A stretch of 64,000 nucleotides of DNA from Alphaproteobacteria bacterium (GTDB taxonomy: Bacteria; Pseudomonadota; Alphaproteobacteria; Bin95), in the NCBI GenBank assembly GCA_965205265.1, contig CBDBGH010000001.1, positions 64,001 to 128,000 on the forward strand. Reading direction: 5' to 3'. The position numbers were made by a program, and so were the translations under genes. The notes below the pieces were generated by a model. The model saw nothing but the letters and a program-made list of their open reading frames with translations, had not been told where the DNA came from and made no database searches. This document shows positions 35,768 through 51,155 of the stretch, piece after piece (position 1 is the first letter of the stretch; each line of letters begins with the position of its first letter).

Positions 35768-37174
35768 GGGTCAATTAAGGCTCAGTGCCAAATCCTGCGT
35801 CAAGCCCTCTGGGTCCCTTGCAATGTGCGATAGACGGTTGCCCTCATTACCCATATAGGTCGTTGCCAATGGCACCGGTGTCGAAACGGTCCCCAAGGAC
35901 GAAGTCGAAGTCGAAATCCTCCGCAGTGATCTGCGACGCCCGTATCCCGACCAAGGTGACGGATCCGCTGTCCCAGGTGATCACGGTGTTCTCGCCCGAC
36001 TGACTGATCGTGAGATCCTCAAGCTTCGTCCTGAGCGCCTCCCCAACAATGGACGCCGGGACTGACTTGAACGCCAGAATGTCCGTCCCGTCCTCGAAAT
36101 CCTCGATCGTCGCATGGCCGCCGTAATCTCTCCAGGATTTTCTCGCGAGCAGGAAAATATCGTTGCCGTCGCCACCATGGAGCGTATCGTGGGCTGGGCC
36201 AACAGCGAGAATTTCGTTGCCCTCTTCGTCATAGTGCGTAAAATAGTCTGGGCCAACAGCGAGAATGTCGTTGCCCTCACCGCCATAGAGCGTGTCGTCG
36301 CCAAATCCGCCGATGAGCAGGTCGTTACCTGCACCTCCGTAAAGGGTGTCGTTGCCCCAGCTGCCCCAGAGCCCGTCCATGCCGTCGCCGCCTCTGAGCG
36401 TGTCGTTGCCGTCGCCGCCGTCGAGGTGATCATTGCCGTTGCCACCCTCCAACGTGTCGTCGCCGTCGCCACTATGGAGTTCGTCGTTGCCGTCGCCGCC
36501 GTACAGCCTGTCGTCGCCCTTGCCGCCATTCAGGTCGTCGTCGCCGCCACCGCCGTAGAGGGTGTCGTCGCCGTATTCGCCGGCCAGCCAGTCGTTGCGC
36601 TTGCCGCCGTACATCTTGTCGTTGCCGTCGCTGCCAAGGATGACGGCGTCGAAGTTGCTCCAGCCGCCGCCGATGCCTCCGTCAGTGTCGTAGTCGACAT
36701 GCCGGGTGAAGCCCCTGGGCAGCGCGAAGTCGCCCCCATCGAGGGTGTCCGCCGACACACCTGTCAGCCTGATGGTGTCGCCATCGCCGTAGCGAACAAG
36801 GGCATCGGCGCCATCCTGCTCGATGACCAGCCCCGCGAACCCGCCCGCCTCGCCATCGATGCGGATCGTGTCGCCGTCCTCGAAGTCGGCAATGGTGTCG
36901 TGGCCGTCCCCTGCCTTGAACACGAAGGTGTCGTCGCCCAGGCCGCCCCTCAGCCAGTCGTCACCCTCCCCGCCGTTAAGAGTGTCGTTGCCCTTGCCGC
37001 CCCTGAGCGTGTCGGCGCCCCTGCCGCCGTTAAGAATATCGTCACCTTTGCGGCCTATCAGGGTGTCGTCGCCGTCTCCGCCGTCGAGGGTATCGGCGCC
37101 ATTTTCGCCCTTCCGCGTCACTCCGGCGGTCTTCCGCTGGGCCGGGTCGGACCCTTCACCTCGTATGTTCAAAG

Positions 37175-37470
37175 AATCAGAAATGAAAGGAGGTGGTGGC
37201 TGTGGAAAAATCTGGCGCGATTTCCTGTGGAAAACATGCCGGTTGCCTTCCGCCGTTCCTCCGGTTCATTCCTGTGTCGGGGCCGACGCCGCCGGGTCCC
37301 ACCCGGCGGCGTCGGTGCGGGGCTGGCCCCGCAGGACGGGTTGGACCGATATCACCTTGGATCGCGACAGCGGATCCGTGGGGAAGCGTGGTCGGCCCGC
37401 CCTCCCGTCCGTCTCCCGGGTCCTGGATGGATGCCTGGGTTTCGGGAACCGGATCATCGCGAGGATAGGA
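37175..37470 (+). ncRNA. Putative bridge RNA of IS110 copy 1 (boundaries approximate)
   Basis: LTG ATCACCT 37351-57, RTG GGGGAAG 37380-86, LDG ATGGATGC 37427-34, RDG CGAG 37460-63, each within stem-flanked loops. Confidence 0.75.
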
Positions 37471-37480
37471 GCGGGAGAGC

Positions 37481-38428
37481 ATGACAACCATAGTCGCAGG
37501 AATCGACGTAAGCAAGCGTACACTGAACGTCCACGTCAACGGGCGTGACCTCACGGCCACCAACGACACGGACGGCTTCCGAAAGGTCGGCCGCGTCCTC
37601 AGGGAGGCCGGCGCCGTGAAGGCCGTCATGGAGGCCACGGGGCGCATGCACCGGGCGCTGCCGCAGTCGCTGCATGCCAGGGGGTTCTCCGCCGTCGTCG
37701 TGAACCCGCGGCAGGCGAGGGACTTCGCGAAGGCCGCCGGGGCCCTTGCGAAGACCGACAGGGTGGACGCCAGGATACTGGCGGCCTTCGGGGCCGCGTT
37801 CCCGGACATGGAGGCCACGGAGCCGGCCTCCGCCGCCATCGACCGGCTCCGCGACATGCTGGTGCTGCGGGACAGGCTCGTGGACCAGCGCACCGAGCTG
37901 AGGACCGTCGTGTCGGAGATCGGCGGGGGGACGCCCGGCGCGGAGGTCGGCAGGGTCCCCGGGGACATCGACGCCGCCATCGCGGCTCTGGAGCGGCGGA
38001 TCGGCGTGACGGTCGCCGGATCGCCGGAGTTCGCCGAAAGCCACCGCATCCTCACCTCGGTGCCGGGCATCGGCCCCGTCACCGCGGCGGCCCTGGTCGC
38101 ATGGATGGCGGAGCTGGGCACCATCGGCAACCGGCAGGCCGCCTCCCTGCTGGGCGTGGCCCCCTTCGCCCGCGACAGCGGCACCCTGAAAGGCGGGAGG
38201 CACATCGGCGGCGGGAGGAGGCGGCCGAGGGACGTCGTCTACATGGCGGCGCTGTCGGCCAGCAGGTGCGCCCCGGACATGAGGGAACTGTACCAACGGC
38301 TCCGGGAGAGGGGAAAGCCCCACAGGGTCGCCCCCGTCGCCGTCATGGGCGGGCTGGTCGTGACCGCCAACGCCCTTCTCCGCGACCGCCGGATGTGGGA
38401 GGACCGGACGGCGGCAACCGCCGCCTGA
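37481..38428 (+). CDS. IS110 DEDD recombinase/transposase
   Basis: GIDVSK, MEATG, KTDRVDA, SVPGIGP, RDSG. Confidence 0.95.
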
Positions 38429-49465: not shown

Positions 49466-49761
49466 AATCAGAAATGAAAGGAGGAGGTGGCTGTGGAAAA
49501 ATCTGGCGCGATTTCCTGTGCAGAACATGCCGGTTGCCTTCCGCCGTCCCTCCGGTTCATTCCTGTGTCGGGACCGCCGCCGCCGGTTCTGATCCGGCGG
49601 CGGCGGTGCGGGGCTGGCCCCGCAGGACGGGTTGGACCGATACGGCCTTGGATCGCGACAGCGGATCCGTGGGAGAGCGTGGTCGGCCCGCCCTCCCGTC
49701 CGTCTCCCGGGTCCTGGATGGATGCCTGGGTTTACAGAACCGGATCATCGCGAGGATAGGA
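49466..49761 (+). ncRNA. Putative bridge RNA of IS110 copy 2 (boundaries approximate)
   Basis: LTG ACGGCCT 49642-48, RTG GGGAGAG 49671-77, LDG ATGGATGC 49718-25, RDG CGAG 49751-54. Confidence 0.75.
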
Positions 49762-49771
49762 GCGGGAGAGC

Positions 49772-50719
49772 ATGACAGCAATGGTCGCCGGAATCGACGT
49801 AAGCAAGCGTACACTCAACATCCACGTCAACGGGCGGGACTTCACGGCCACCAACGACAGCGACGGCTTCCGCAGGGTCGCCCGCCTGCTCAGGGAGGCT
49901 GGCGCCGTGAAGGCCGTCATGGAGGCCACGGGGCGCATGCACCGGGCGCTGCTGCAGTCGCTGCACGCCAGGGGTTTCGCCACCCTCGTGGTGAACCCCA
50001 GGCAGGCGAGGGACTTCGCGAAGGCCGCCGGCGCCCTTGCGAAGACGGACAGGGTGGACGCCAGGATACTGGCGGCCTTCGGGACCGCGTTCCCGGACAT
50101 GGAGGCCACGGAGCCGGCCGCCGCCGCCATCGACCAGCTCCGCGACATGCTGGTGCTGCGGGAGAAACTCGTGGACCAGCGCACCGAGCTGAGGACCGTC
50201 GTGTCGGAGATCGGCGCGGGGACGCCCGGCGCGGAGGTCGGCAGGGTCCTCGAGGATATCGACGCCGCCATCGCGGCTCTGGAGCGGCGGATCGGCGGGA
50301 CGGTCTCCGGATCGCCGGAGTTCGCCGACAGCCACCGCATCCTGACCTCGGTGCCGGGCATCGGCCCCGTCACGGCGGCGGCGCTGGTCGCGTGGATGGC
50401 GGAGCTGGGCCCGGTCGGCAACCGCCAGGCCGCCTCCCTGCTGGGCGTGGCCCCCCTCCCCCGCGACAGCGGGACCATCAGGGGCGGGCGCCACATCGGC
50501 GGCGGAAGGAGGCGGCCGAGGGACGTCGTCTACATGGCGGCGCTGTCGGCCAGCCGGTGCGCCCCGGACATGAGGGAGCTGTACCAACGGCTCCGGGACA
50601 GGGGAAAGCCCCACAGGGTCGCCCTCGTGGCCGTCATGCGCAGGCTGGCCGTGACCGCCAACGCCCTTCTCCGCGACCGCCGCGTGTGGGAGGACCGGAC
50701 GGCGGCCACCGCCGCCTGA
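49772..50719 (+). CDS. IS110 DEDD recombinase/transposase
   Basis: Same motifs as copy 1; 315 aa, colinear. Confidence 0.95.
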
Positions 50720-51155
50720 CGCCCGGACGGACCGCCGCGGTCCGGCACCGAAACGAATCACCCGCGGGCCGGCCGGGGTCTCCCCGGCGGGCGTTTCCGG
50801 CGTGCCCGGATGGCACCGCCTGTGGGGAACGCTGTGGAAAGGTCCGGGACAGCCGGACGCGGAGCCCGGAAAAAATGGAAAAAAAGCCGGATCCGGGCTT
50901 GAATTCCAATATGGATGCTCTCCCCTGCGACGGCAAAGGCGATGGAGGGCGGCCGCCTCCTCATGGTCCGCCGGTCCAGTCGGAGCGGTCAGCGGAGGTC
51001 GCGCAGATGCCCCTCGTCCCTGGCACCGGCAAGAACCTCCATGCGAATGGCGTCACAGACGGCGATGTCCGCCCCAAGGACCTTTCCGACACGCTCACAT
51101 ACCGGTGAACCCGTGTCGCGGAGGAATTCGATCCATGCGGACGTGTCGACCGGTA

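Follow-up and report, generated by a model that had tools for sequence, protein, structure and literature searches.

Three sister IS110-group elements on one replicon carry diverged target guides in a predicted bridge RNA

Introduction

The bridge-RNA mechanism is now applied in genome engineering. The founding bridge-RNA element of the IS110 group is IS621 from Escherichia coli (structures 8WT6-8WT9), whose recombinase combines a DEDD RuvC-like domain with a Tnp domain and has a catalytic Ser-Gly. IS621 has a CT core and carries a non-coding RNA in its left end, upstream of the recombinase. This RNA has two internal loops, a variable target loop and a conserved donor loop, and a candidate promoter spans the junction of the right end with the left end. 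As set out in passages of Durrant et al. [quoted passage not shown] The founding evidence in those passages is the covariation of guides and targets across thousands of natural IS110 elements, and natural guide/site concordance is, as a phenomenon, already published there. They also give the criterion for the IS110 group: a long non-coding left end upstream of the recombinase and a shorter right end. Elements of the IS1111 group, which use a seekRNA, likewise have a DEDD recombinase and RNA-guided choice of site, but it is the right end that holds their long non-coding region, and their subterminal inverted repeats are longer (passages of PMC11208160). For ISPpu10, an IS110 element of Pseudomonas putida, the cited part of a further report describes action in trans and a layer of specificity beyond base pairing (10.64898/2026.03.19.712850).

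Here we describe two IS110-group elements, e1 and e2, in a window of 64,000 nucleotides from an alphaproteobacterial genome (all coordinates below refer to this stretch unless stated otherwise), along with a third copy, e3. The features of IS621 listed above are all found in e1 and e2, with the two internal loops and their strand assignments being predicted here. The differences from IS621 are a distant protein (72.9 bits over residues 7-301), two predicted hairpins at the 5' end of the RNA, and a left guide of 5 nt plus the core (in IS621, the 5' side has 8-9 nt); the right guide is also 5 nt plus the core. Unlike in the IS1111 group, the RNA lies in the left end. IS110 elements from Paracoccaceae MAGs are 59-71% identical to e1 and e2 in protein and about 75-78% identical in full-length DNA. 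They have the same termini, donor guides, and RNA scaffold, and their guides also follow their flanks, but they carry other sets of guides and occur in many copies per genome, often within a repeated flank, whereas our genome has few copies, all of them on one replicon and diverged from one another. The lineage may already be within Supplementary Data 2 of Durrant et al. (guide bins and target motifs). We conclude, with a probability of roughly 0.87, that e1, e2, and e3 belong to one IS110-group lineage that moves by bridge-RNA-guided recombination, as IS621 does.

Results

Elements and their surroundings

37160..38628, + strand: element e1, IS110-group insertion sequence, 1469 bp
49451..50919, + strand: element e2, sister of e1, 1469 bp
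35847..37157, - strand: interrupted RTX calcium-binding repeat gene, downstream piece (PF00353, 3.3e-53, 7 stretches)
38631..39269, - strand: interrupted RTX gene, upstream piece (PF00353, 6.6e-24)

The two elements in the window align without gaps at 93.1% identity (1469 bp each, counting both terminal CTs). The limits of e1 are exactly where its similarity to e2, e3, and the relatives L001-L022 and L026 starts and stops. The third copy, e3, lies beyond the window on the same 193-kb contig (G000:C1:141274-142742, minus strand). All three copies have a CT core at both ends and are without terminal inverted repeats; apart from a short ACAT..ATGT pair, their ends are asymmetric. The non-coding ends are 321 nt on the left (upstream of the recombinase) and 200 nt on the right.

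When e1 is removed in silico, the two pieces of the RTX gene fall in one reading frame. The rebuilt site of e2 contains an open frame of 301 amino acids, and a Pfam search of the ORFs flanking e2 and e3 found no domain. We also saw two solo left-end fragments, with no right-end partner anywhere in the genome; the adjacent ORFs gave no clue.

Recombinases

37481..38428, + strand: e1 recombinase, 315 amino acids (PF01548, 4.8e-21; PF02371, 1.1e-17)
49772..50719, + strand: e2 recombinase, 315 amino acids (PF01548, 4.2e-22; PF02371, 1e-17), 89% identical to the e1 protein

Both proteins pass the curated cut-offs for DEDD_Tnp_IS110 (PF01548) and Transposase_20 (PF02371), and homology to recombinases of known elements was found for IS621 (chain 8wt6_A, E = 2.6e-19) and ISCro4 (E = 8.4e-18). 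The residues D9, E51, D93, D96, and S233-G234 are invariant in the recombinases of all three copies, and they align with D11, E60, D102, D105, and S241-G242 of IS621. Between copies, dN/dS is 0.35-0.40, which indicates purifying selection on the recombinases; the elements may well still be active.

A predicted bridge RNA with invariant donor guides

37338..37399, + strand: e1 target-binding loop (outer stem, internal loop, inner hairpin), predicted by RNAalifold and by single-sequence folding
37413..37477, + strand: e1 donor-binding loop, predicted by RNAalifold
37427..37434, + strand: e1 left donor guide ATGGATGC, equal to the right-end terminus atggatg plus the core C
37455..37463, + strand: e1 right donor guide CAU-cg-CGAG, in discontiguous pairing with the left-end top strand CTCG-t-ATG
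49718..49725, + strand: e2 left donor guide ATGGATGC, the same as in e1
49746..49754, + strand: e2 right donor guide, the same as in e1
37164..37169, + strand: candidate -10 (TATGTT) of a junction promoter, read by eye
38608..38613, + strand: candidate -35 (TTGATT) in the e1 right end, read by eye and proposed on that reading

We computed a consensus fold with RNAalifold from 36 distinct RNAs of the family and also folded e1 as a single sequence. In the predicted structure, two 5' hairpins are followed by the target-binding and donor-binding loops, each an internal-loop module, with canonical pairing in 2091 of 2106 paired cells. There is hardly any variation in the scaffold stems: compensatory changes occur in 4 of 59 pairs, with none inside either binding-loop module, and the outer stem of the donor loop (CUCCCG/CGGGAG) is the same in 36 of 36 sequences. 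With almost no compensatory change, covariation gives no independent proof of the fold, which is a prediction. A search of positions 36500-51500 of the window with the covariance models of Rfam 15 gave no matches at E ≤ 1; Rfam may hold no bridge RNA model.

The most variable columns of the RNA are guide letters, at positions 193-195 and 222-224 (1.5-1.9 bits), as compared to 0 bits for the donor guides. By direct reading, the donor guides are complementary to the junction of right end with left end (atggatg-CT-cgtatg). Because the donor guides and the element ends do not vary, covariation is uninformative for this pairing.

Proposed mechanism

In the proposed mechanism, the element would excise as a circle that closes its right end onto its left end. 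This junction, atggatg-CT-cgtatg, would be the donor site, and it would also place the right-end TTGATT 17 nt upstream of the left-end TATGTT, forming a candidate promoter. (Relatives have TTGAC where e1 has TTGATT, and a sigma-70 scan of integrated e1 found no promoter.) The left-end RNA, which is probably transcribed, would fold into its two 5' hairpins, target-binding loop, and donor-binding loop. On the 5' side of the target loop, 5 nt and the core would pair with the bottom strand to the left of the CT, and on the 3' side, 5 nt and AG would pair with the top strand to the right of it, while the donor loop would recognise the element's own junction. Finally, the DEDD/Ser recombinase would exchange strands at the CT. 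Since the donor arms, donor guides, and scaffold are identical but the ten letters of the target guides have diverged, each lineage would aim at a 12-bp site of its own.

Target guides of e1 and e2 mostly match their own sites

37155..37161, + strand: e1 left target arm ttcac plus CT core (4/5 match to the left target guide, LTG, ATCAC, plus CT)
37351..37357, + strand: e1 left target guide ATCAC plus CT
37380..37386, + strand: e1 right target guide (RTG) GGGGA plus AG (reverse complement CT-TCCCC; site tcctc 4/5, or 5/5 with one rG.dT wobble)
38620..38633, + strand: e1 right-end terminus atggatg, CT core, right target arm tcctc
49446..49452, + strand: e2 left target arm acggt plus CT core (4/5 to LTG ACGGC, with the mismatch at -1)
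49642..49648, + strand: e2 left target guide ACGGC plus CT
49671..49677, + strand: e2 right target guide GGGAG plus AG (reverse complement CT-CTCCC; site ctccc 5/5)
50911..50924, + strand: e2 right-end terminus atggatg, CT core, right target arm ctccc

Across the 62-nt target-binding loop (element positions 179-240), e1 and e2 differ only at positions 193, 194, 195, 224, and 225, and all five of these differences are among the ten guide letters. In the rest of the left end, 14 of 311 positions differ, as compared to 5 of 10 guide positions (Fisher p = 8.8e-5). At its own site, the e1 guide reaches 8/10, as against 4/10 at the site of e2; the e2 guide reaches 9/10 at its own site versus 3/10 at the site of e1.

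These results confirm an observation made in an earlier note on this DNA, that two IS110-group elements with IS621-type bridge RNAs have the same donor loop and target loops that each match their own insertion site. Our reading of the boundaries agrees with the note's (both elements 1469 bp with CT cores), and we read the flanks identically, as ccttcac-CT-element-CT-tcctc for e1 and gaacggt-CT-element-CT-ctccc for e2. The note's claims that the target stem-loops differ at the guides and that the donor guides (ATGGATGC and CGAG) are unchanged and fit the circle junction are borne out, with element ends and donor guides identical in e1 and e2. Its match counts (6 contiguous, 6/7, 6/7, and 7/7) were correct on recount.

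Among 562,086 CT sites in the genome, 633 (0.11%) score at least 8/10 with the e1 guide and 112 (0.02%) score at least 9/10 with the e2 guide. Some sites that are as good or better are vacant: three on the chromosome score 10/10 with the e2 guide, and 38 score 9/10 with the e1 guide. Thus, either pairing alone does not set the location, or the elements rarely move. The additional layer of specificity reported for ISPpu10 bears on these vacant sites.

Age of the divergence

The earlier note went on to propose that a near-identical recombinase had been retargeted in nature. The retargeting part stands, in that the target loop has diverged and each guide is a far better fit to its own site than to that of the other element, but "near-identical" was an overstatement: the proteins are 88-89% identical with dS of 0.12-0.17, so these are sister lineages and not near-identical copies. 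Furthermore, e3 carries a third guide, and no two of the copies share one. Given this divergence, the retargeting is old, and this cell need not be where it took place.

Whether three already-diverged lineages landed here separately, with the cell witnessing no retargeting, is to our minds an even call. The copies differ pairwise at 87-105 of 1469 nt, and this, like the dS values, is far above what is usual for copies from recent transposition. Separate landings would also fit with the lack of a common guide, with the absence of the element from all 40 related genomes, and with the location of every copy on a contig of lower G+C (65.7%, versus 68.2% in the chromosome). In addition, 38-61% of e1's sampled words are present in sequencing runs labelled as several other organisms, so close but non-identical variants occur elsewhere. 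On the other hand, all three copies are on one plasmid-sized replicon (the 193-kb contig) and the 5.46-Mb chromosome has none, which local spread would explain too. Also, when read by eye, the variable sites of e1, e2, and e3 form long runs, with the pair of copies that agrees changing from run to run. This pattern suggests that the copies have exchanged segments, which would require some co-residence. These alternatives concern the history only, and the mechanism is not in dispute between them.

The third copy matches its site in one arm

The left guide of e3 (ACCGC) matches its site (GACAC) at 2/5 positions, or 3/5 with G.T wobble, whereas with one G.T wobble allowed, pairing is complete over the core and the right arm (TTCCC). 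In total, the e3 guide scores 6/10 on each of the three sites, which have no extended motif in common. The earlier note had reasoned that copies at sites unrelated to their loops would speak against retargeting; e3 is such a copy in its left arm, and in its right arm it is not.

It is possible, at somewhat less than even odds, that e3 did not arrive by a full match to its present RNA, and that its insertion was guided by one arm (a half match) or in trans. The relative L104 looks alike, with 5/5 in the right arm and 1/5 in the left. A 2026 preprint (10.64898/2026.08.31.748434) states, in the part cited here, that IS621 can insert where the core and one arm match, but the in vivo classes given in that part are of donor-arm matches, and sites matched only in the right target arm are not a class there. 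The e3 site is fitted slightly better by the e1 guide (7/10) than by its own (6/10), which is not a meaningful difference, and two mutations in the e3 guide after insertion would give the same picture.

Cross-action between the guides of e1 and e2 is plausible, and it would be expected from the shared donor arms and scaffold; the guides may be able to act in trans. More doubtful, and in our view unlikely, is that the three copies form a shared pool in which any recombinase works with any RNA on any copy, guide loops are reassorted by homologous exchange as well as by point mutation, and the e3 site was filled by a trans-guided or one-arm insertion. The identity of the three copies in donor arms, donor guides, and RNA scaffolds would allow each recombinase to load each RNA. 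If such a pool exists, it is a natural three-guide system in one cell.

Guides and flanks covary across the family

For bridge-RNA-guided insertion of this lineage as a whole, we compared guides to flanks in the relatives from Paracoccaceae MAGs (loci L001-L022, L026, and L101-L157). Among 29 distinct pairs of LTG and left flank, 102 of 145 positions match, as compared to a mean of 63.0 after shuffling. Among 16 distinct pairs of RTG and right flank, 63 of 80 positions match (shuffle mean 36.1). None of 20,000 shuffles attained the observed value on the left or on the right, with related elements treated as independent. The earlier note had named covariation of the homologs' guides with their flanks as a check on its reading, and the outcome is in its favor.

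The agreement is not uniform. In 11 of the 45 pairs, at most 2/5 positions match, and these include register shifts of 1 nt and matches in one arm. In several relatives, the left guide fits only the first base of the core (CC or CA for CT). One relative has a duplicated site holding two elements with different right guides, one of which appears to be borrowed from another co-resident lineage, as exchange between sister elements would produce. Pairs from metagenomes also agree (TCGGC with TCGGC and CGCAC with CGCAC).

It is very improbable that e1 and e2 fit their sites by coincidence, as a likeness that the eye found in G+C-rich DNA. The guides are short (5+5 nt), and with pyrimidine-rich right arms at all three sites and purine-rich right guides, cross-site scores reach 6-8/10 if G.T wobble is permitted, but the five letters that distinguish e1 from e2 are precisely those that distinguish their sites, and we rejected this explanation because of the rarity of equally good CT sites in the genome and the shuffle test on the same columns in the family.

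Use of the natural guide/site pairs

The three elements leave existing knowledge of bridge RNAs unchanged. They are a natural experiment, with three sisters that have one scaffold and donor and three target loops, two of which fit their sites at 8-9/10 and one of which fits in a single arm. They thus offer ready matched and mismatched pairs of guide and site, which bear on the tolerance and position of mismatches, on G.T wobbles, and on cross-action between co-resident guides.

Searches in related genomes and sequencing runs

In the 40 related genomes, the left flank of e2 was matched by short repeats only, with no empty site. Among the listed sequencing runs that hold words of e1, none is an RNA run. 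We compared contigs from four of the runs to positions 36500-51500 of the window and saw no clean joint that skips exactly one element among the 15 of 106 joints listed; many of these contigs are short and consist of the IS family and RTX repeats, which makes joints ambiguous. In the same comparison, contigs from two runs (X2 and X3) diverge from the window exactly at 49450, the base before e2, and continue with about 210 letters that are foreign to the window.

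Three copies of one IS110-group element

A BLAST search of both element stretches against the whole genome identified three full-length copies, every one on the same 193-kb contig (C1; 65.7% G+C), of which the window is C1:64001–128000. A 5.46-Mb contig of the genome has 68.2% G+C.

e1: window 37160–38628, plus strand, full length by BLAST
e2: window 49451–50919, plus strand, full length by BLAST
e3: C1 141274–142742 (positions 1501–2969 of locus L094), minus strand, outside the window; full length, its 315-aa frame intact

Each copy is 1469 bp long (including the CT at each end) and comprises a non-coding left end of 321 nt, an intact frame of 315 codons, and a right end of 200 nt. 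The three align without gaps: e1 and e2 differ at 101 nt (93.1% identity), e1 and e3 at 105 nt (92.9%), and e2 and e3 at 87 nt (94.1%).

Guides of e1 and e2 fit their own sites

The earlier note had read the flanks as ccttcac-CT and CT-tcctc for e1 and as gaacggt-CT and CT-ctccc for e2, and our re-reading agrees. So do the letters of the target-binding loop: ATCAC-CT and GGGGA-AG in e1, ACGGC-CT and GGGAG-AG in e2. Its claim that the stem-loop (62 nt, element positions 179–240) differs essentially only at the guides is borne out, as e1 and e2 differ there solely at 193–195 and 224–225. Across the left end, 5 of 10 guide letters differ, as compared to 14 of the 311 remaining positions (Fisher p = 8.8e-5), and these five letters are exactly the ones that separate the two sites. 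The pairs with e3 have 2 and 3 guide differences and none elsewhere in the 62-nt stem-loop. The donor side is indeed unchanged: the strings ATGGATGC and CAUCGCGAG are the same in all copies and fit the predicted circularisation junction, atggatg-CT-cgtatg. The guides of e3 are ACCGC (left) and GGGGA (right), and its site is gacac-CT-ttccc.

Scores of each guide at each site. Values are Watson-Crick matches out of 10 (five letters on each side of the CT core), with the score allowing G.T wobble in brackets.
e1 guide: e1 site 8 (9); e2 site 4 (6); e3 site 7 (8)
e2 guide: e1 site 3 (6); e2 site 9 (9); e3 site 5 (7)
e3 guide: e1 site 6 (8); e2 site 6 (7); e3 site 6 (8)

By these scores, the guides of e1 and e2 clearly favour their own sites. 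That of e3 does not: the fit is confined to the right arm and core, and its left guide ACCGC stands opposite GACAC. The earlier note would have counted copies at sites unrelated to their loops against its reading, and e3 is such a copy in its left arm and not in its right arm or core. The e3 site may reflect insertion on a one-arm match, for which the accessible text of a 2026 preprint describes a precedent in IS621 (10.64898/2026.08.31.748434). Alternatively, insertion may have been guided by another copy's RNA, or the e3 guide may have mutated after insertion.

Of the 562,086 CT sites in the genome, 633 reach a score of 8 or more with the e1 guide, and 112 reach 9 or more with the e2 guide. 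Three sites on the chromosome match the e2 guide perfectly and all are unoccupied, so either the elements seldom move or site choice depends on more than the 12 bp. For ISPpu10, specificity beyond base pairing is argued in the available text of another preprint (10.64898/2026.03.19.712850).

Guides and flanks agree across the family

Scanning species-representative genomes from a protein seed gave 347 relatives, of which we kept the best 80. Among these, 23 loci from Paracoccaceae MAGs (L001–L022 and L026; 59–71% protein identity) align with e1 across the whole element. A pattern scan with a conserved donor-loop string added 57 genome stretches and 9 metagenome stretches. In the family alignments, the stems and termini are invariant, and two hypervariable 5-nt blocks lie where the earlier note had placed the left and right target guides (LTG and RTG). 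Among 36 distinct RNAs, column entropy is highest at positions 193–195 and 222–224 (1.5–1.9 bits) and is 0 bits in the donor guide columns. The same pattern, a variable first loop and a conserved second loop, is described in the accessible text of Durrant et al. (PMC11208160).

Parsing all of the loci gave 78 target loops and 46 distinct elements. Both flanks were found for 25; otherwise, one end was outside the stored stretch or was rearranged.

Letters matched between guides and flanks. The pairs are akin to each other, hence the shuffle fractions (0/20,000) are not true probabilities.
Left (LTG / left flank): 29 distinct pairs; 102/145 matched; shuffle mean 63.0; 0/20,000 shuffles reach the observed value
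Right (RTG / right flank): 16 distinct pairs; 63/80 matched; shuffle mean 36.1; 0/20,000 shuffles reach the observed value

Judged from these sequences, the effect is large despite the kinship. All ten guide positions contribute (17–25 of 29 pairs on the left, 10–16 of 16 on the right), and metagenome copies outside the pair count are concordant (e.g., TCGGC/TCGGC, CGCAC/CGCAC, and CGCAC/AGCAC). Eleven of the 45 family pairs, e3 among them, match at two or fewer of five letters. Two of these misses look like 1-nt register shifts (GACAC at ..TCACC-CT; CAGGC at ..AGGCC-CT), and others match in one arm (e.g., AGATC/AATCG, whose right arm is perfect).

On one MAG contig, two loci (L134, minus strand, with its target-binding loop at 6451, and L115, with its loop at 417) have identical 15-nt flanks on both sides, ..ACCGC-CT-CTCGC... 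One right guide, GCGAG, fits at 5/5 and the other, GATGG, at 2/5. A further lineage of that MAG (L152) has GATGG as its right guide, and here it looks like a guide that was swapped after insertion.

Predicted bridge RNA and element junction

The RNAalifold consensus of the 36 RNAs has, in order, two 5' hairpins, a target module, and a donor module. The predicted target module has an outer stem, an internal loop with both target guides, and an inner hairpin; the predicted donor module is closed by CUCCCG/CGGGAG and bears the donor strings. Paired cells are canonical in 2091 of 2106 cases. Compensatory change occurs in just 4 of 59 pairs (three in the first hairpin and one in a stem just outside the target-binding loop), so the two-module fold is consistent with the data, short of independent proof. 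Folded singly, the sequences do only mildly better than their shuffled versions (z = -2.5 and -2.35).

The orientation agrees with the IS621 model in the accessible text of Durrant et al. (PMC11208160) in three ways: the 5' side of a loop reads as the top strand and so would pair with the bottom one, the 3' side reads as the top strand's reverse complement, and the right donor guide is discontiguous (CGAG with CTCG and CAU with ATG, with two letters looped out). In the target loop the core complement is followed by CG, and in the donor loop by G. By analogy with the IS621 "handshake" guides, as presented in the available text of PMC11208158, these letters could form pairs with the donor positions TG and target position -1. 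Target position -1 agrees with the guide in 25 of 29 pairs and is a C almost every time, as would follow from such pairing.

When the ends are joined, 17 nt separate TTGATT in the right end (relatives have TTGAC) from TATGTT in the left end. Read by eye, these are a candidate junction promoter.

Recombinase and history of the copies

Both window proteins are above the Pfam cut-offs for DEDD_Tnp_IS110 and Transposase_20. Among solved structures, the best matches are 8wt6_A, the transposase of IS621 (E = 2.6e-19), and 9t56_A, that of ISCro4 (E = 8.4e-18). D9, E51, D93, D96, and S233-G234 align with their equivalents in IS621 (D11, E60, D102, D105, and S241-G242), which form the composite active site according to the accessible text of Hiraizumi et al. 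(PMC11208158). These six residues are unchanged in e1, e2, and e3.

The earlier note had proposed that a near-identical recombinase was retargeted. The own-site guides of e1 and e2 support the retargeting, but the recombinases of the three copies are not near-identical (88–89% protein identity, dS 0.12–0.17). With dN/dS of 0.35–0.40 between copies, the genes have stayed under selection. The dS values and the three different guides indicate sister lineages, not recent duplicates of one another. They may have diverged on the present replicon or may have reached it separately. Variable sites are grouped in long runs, and the pair of copies that agrees changes from run to run (e2 and e3 at 57 sites, e1 and e3 at 39, and e3 unique at 43): e1 and e3 are the same over the first 150 nt, near 900–1000, and at the end, as are e2 and e3 over about 300–600. 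These mosaic runs suggest segment exchange among the copies.

The element was absent from all 40 related genomes examined. Public sequencing runs whose labels name several other organisms contain 38–61% of e1's sampled words, so close variants exist elsewhere. The contigs compared from such runs were fragmented and yielded no readable guide or empty site. Contigs from two runs (X2 and X3) are ~98–99% identical to the left flank of e2, with the fit ending exactly at window 49450, the base before e2; the next ~210 letters have no match on the 15-kb stretch compared (window 36500–51500), and at this point the strains seem to carry different DNA.

The chromosome has two copies of a distant IS110-family recombinase with 38% protein identity to e1's, at C3:894360–895283 (minus) and C3:4157822–4158745 (plus).

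Relation to published work

The accessible text of Durrant et al. (PMC11208160) reports a covariation analysis over 5,511 target-ncRNA pairs, and that of Siddiquee et al. starts from the observation that closely related insertion sequences choose different sites. As far as our searches show, e1, e2, and e3 are an instance of the published guide/target rule in a lineage apparently unnamed in the literature searched; keyword searches of open-access text turned up no account of sister copies that share a genome and differ in their guides. Their main value is as natural matched, wobble-matched, and half-matched guide/site pairs that share one scaffold.

Insertion context and other repeats

35847–39269, minus strand: RTX calcium-binding repeat protein gene, interrupted by e1
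36159–37163 and 38952–39266: 27-nt periodic repeats
34995–35628, 39756–40407, and 48668–48967: three copies of a ~300–650-nt repeat (93–98% identity)
45772–46758, minus strand: 328-aa ORF with IS1595-family transposase domains PF12762 (3.2e-40) and PF12760
84–377: 147-nt unit in perfect tandem (two copies, 100% identical)

The two pieces of the RTX gene (PF00353, E = 3.3e-53 and 6.6e-24) are in one reading frame across the rebuilt e1 site, and the 27-nt periodicity around e1 is explained by the calcium-binding nonapeptide repeats of PF00353. The ORFs beside e2 and e3 had no match in Pfam. Two copies of the ~300–650-nt repeat flank the RTX/e1 region and the third ends ~480 nt before e2; ORFs over two of the three copies had no match in Pfam. 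The IS1595-family insertion sequence sits between e1 and e2.

Two solo left-end fragments, C1:6824–6862 (plus; L095) and C1:62991–63033 (minus; L096, ~1 kb before the window start), correspond to the element's first 39–43 nt at 91–95% identity. Neither continues into the remainder of the element, and no right-end partner for either was found anywhere in the genome. Each starts exactly at CT-CGTATG and ends just past GGAGG, and one of the two adjoins a truncated piece of an ISAzo13-type DDE transposase.
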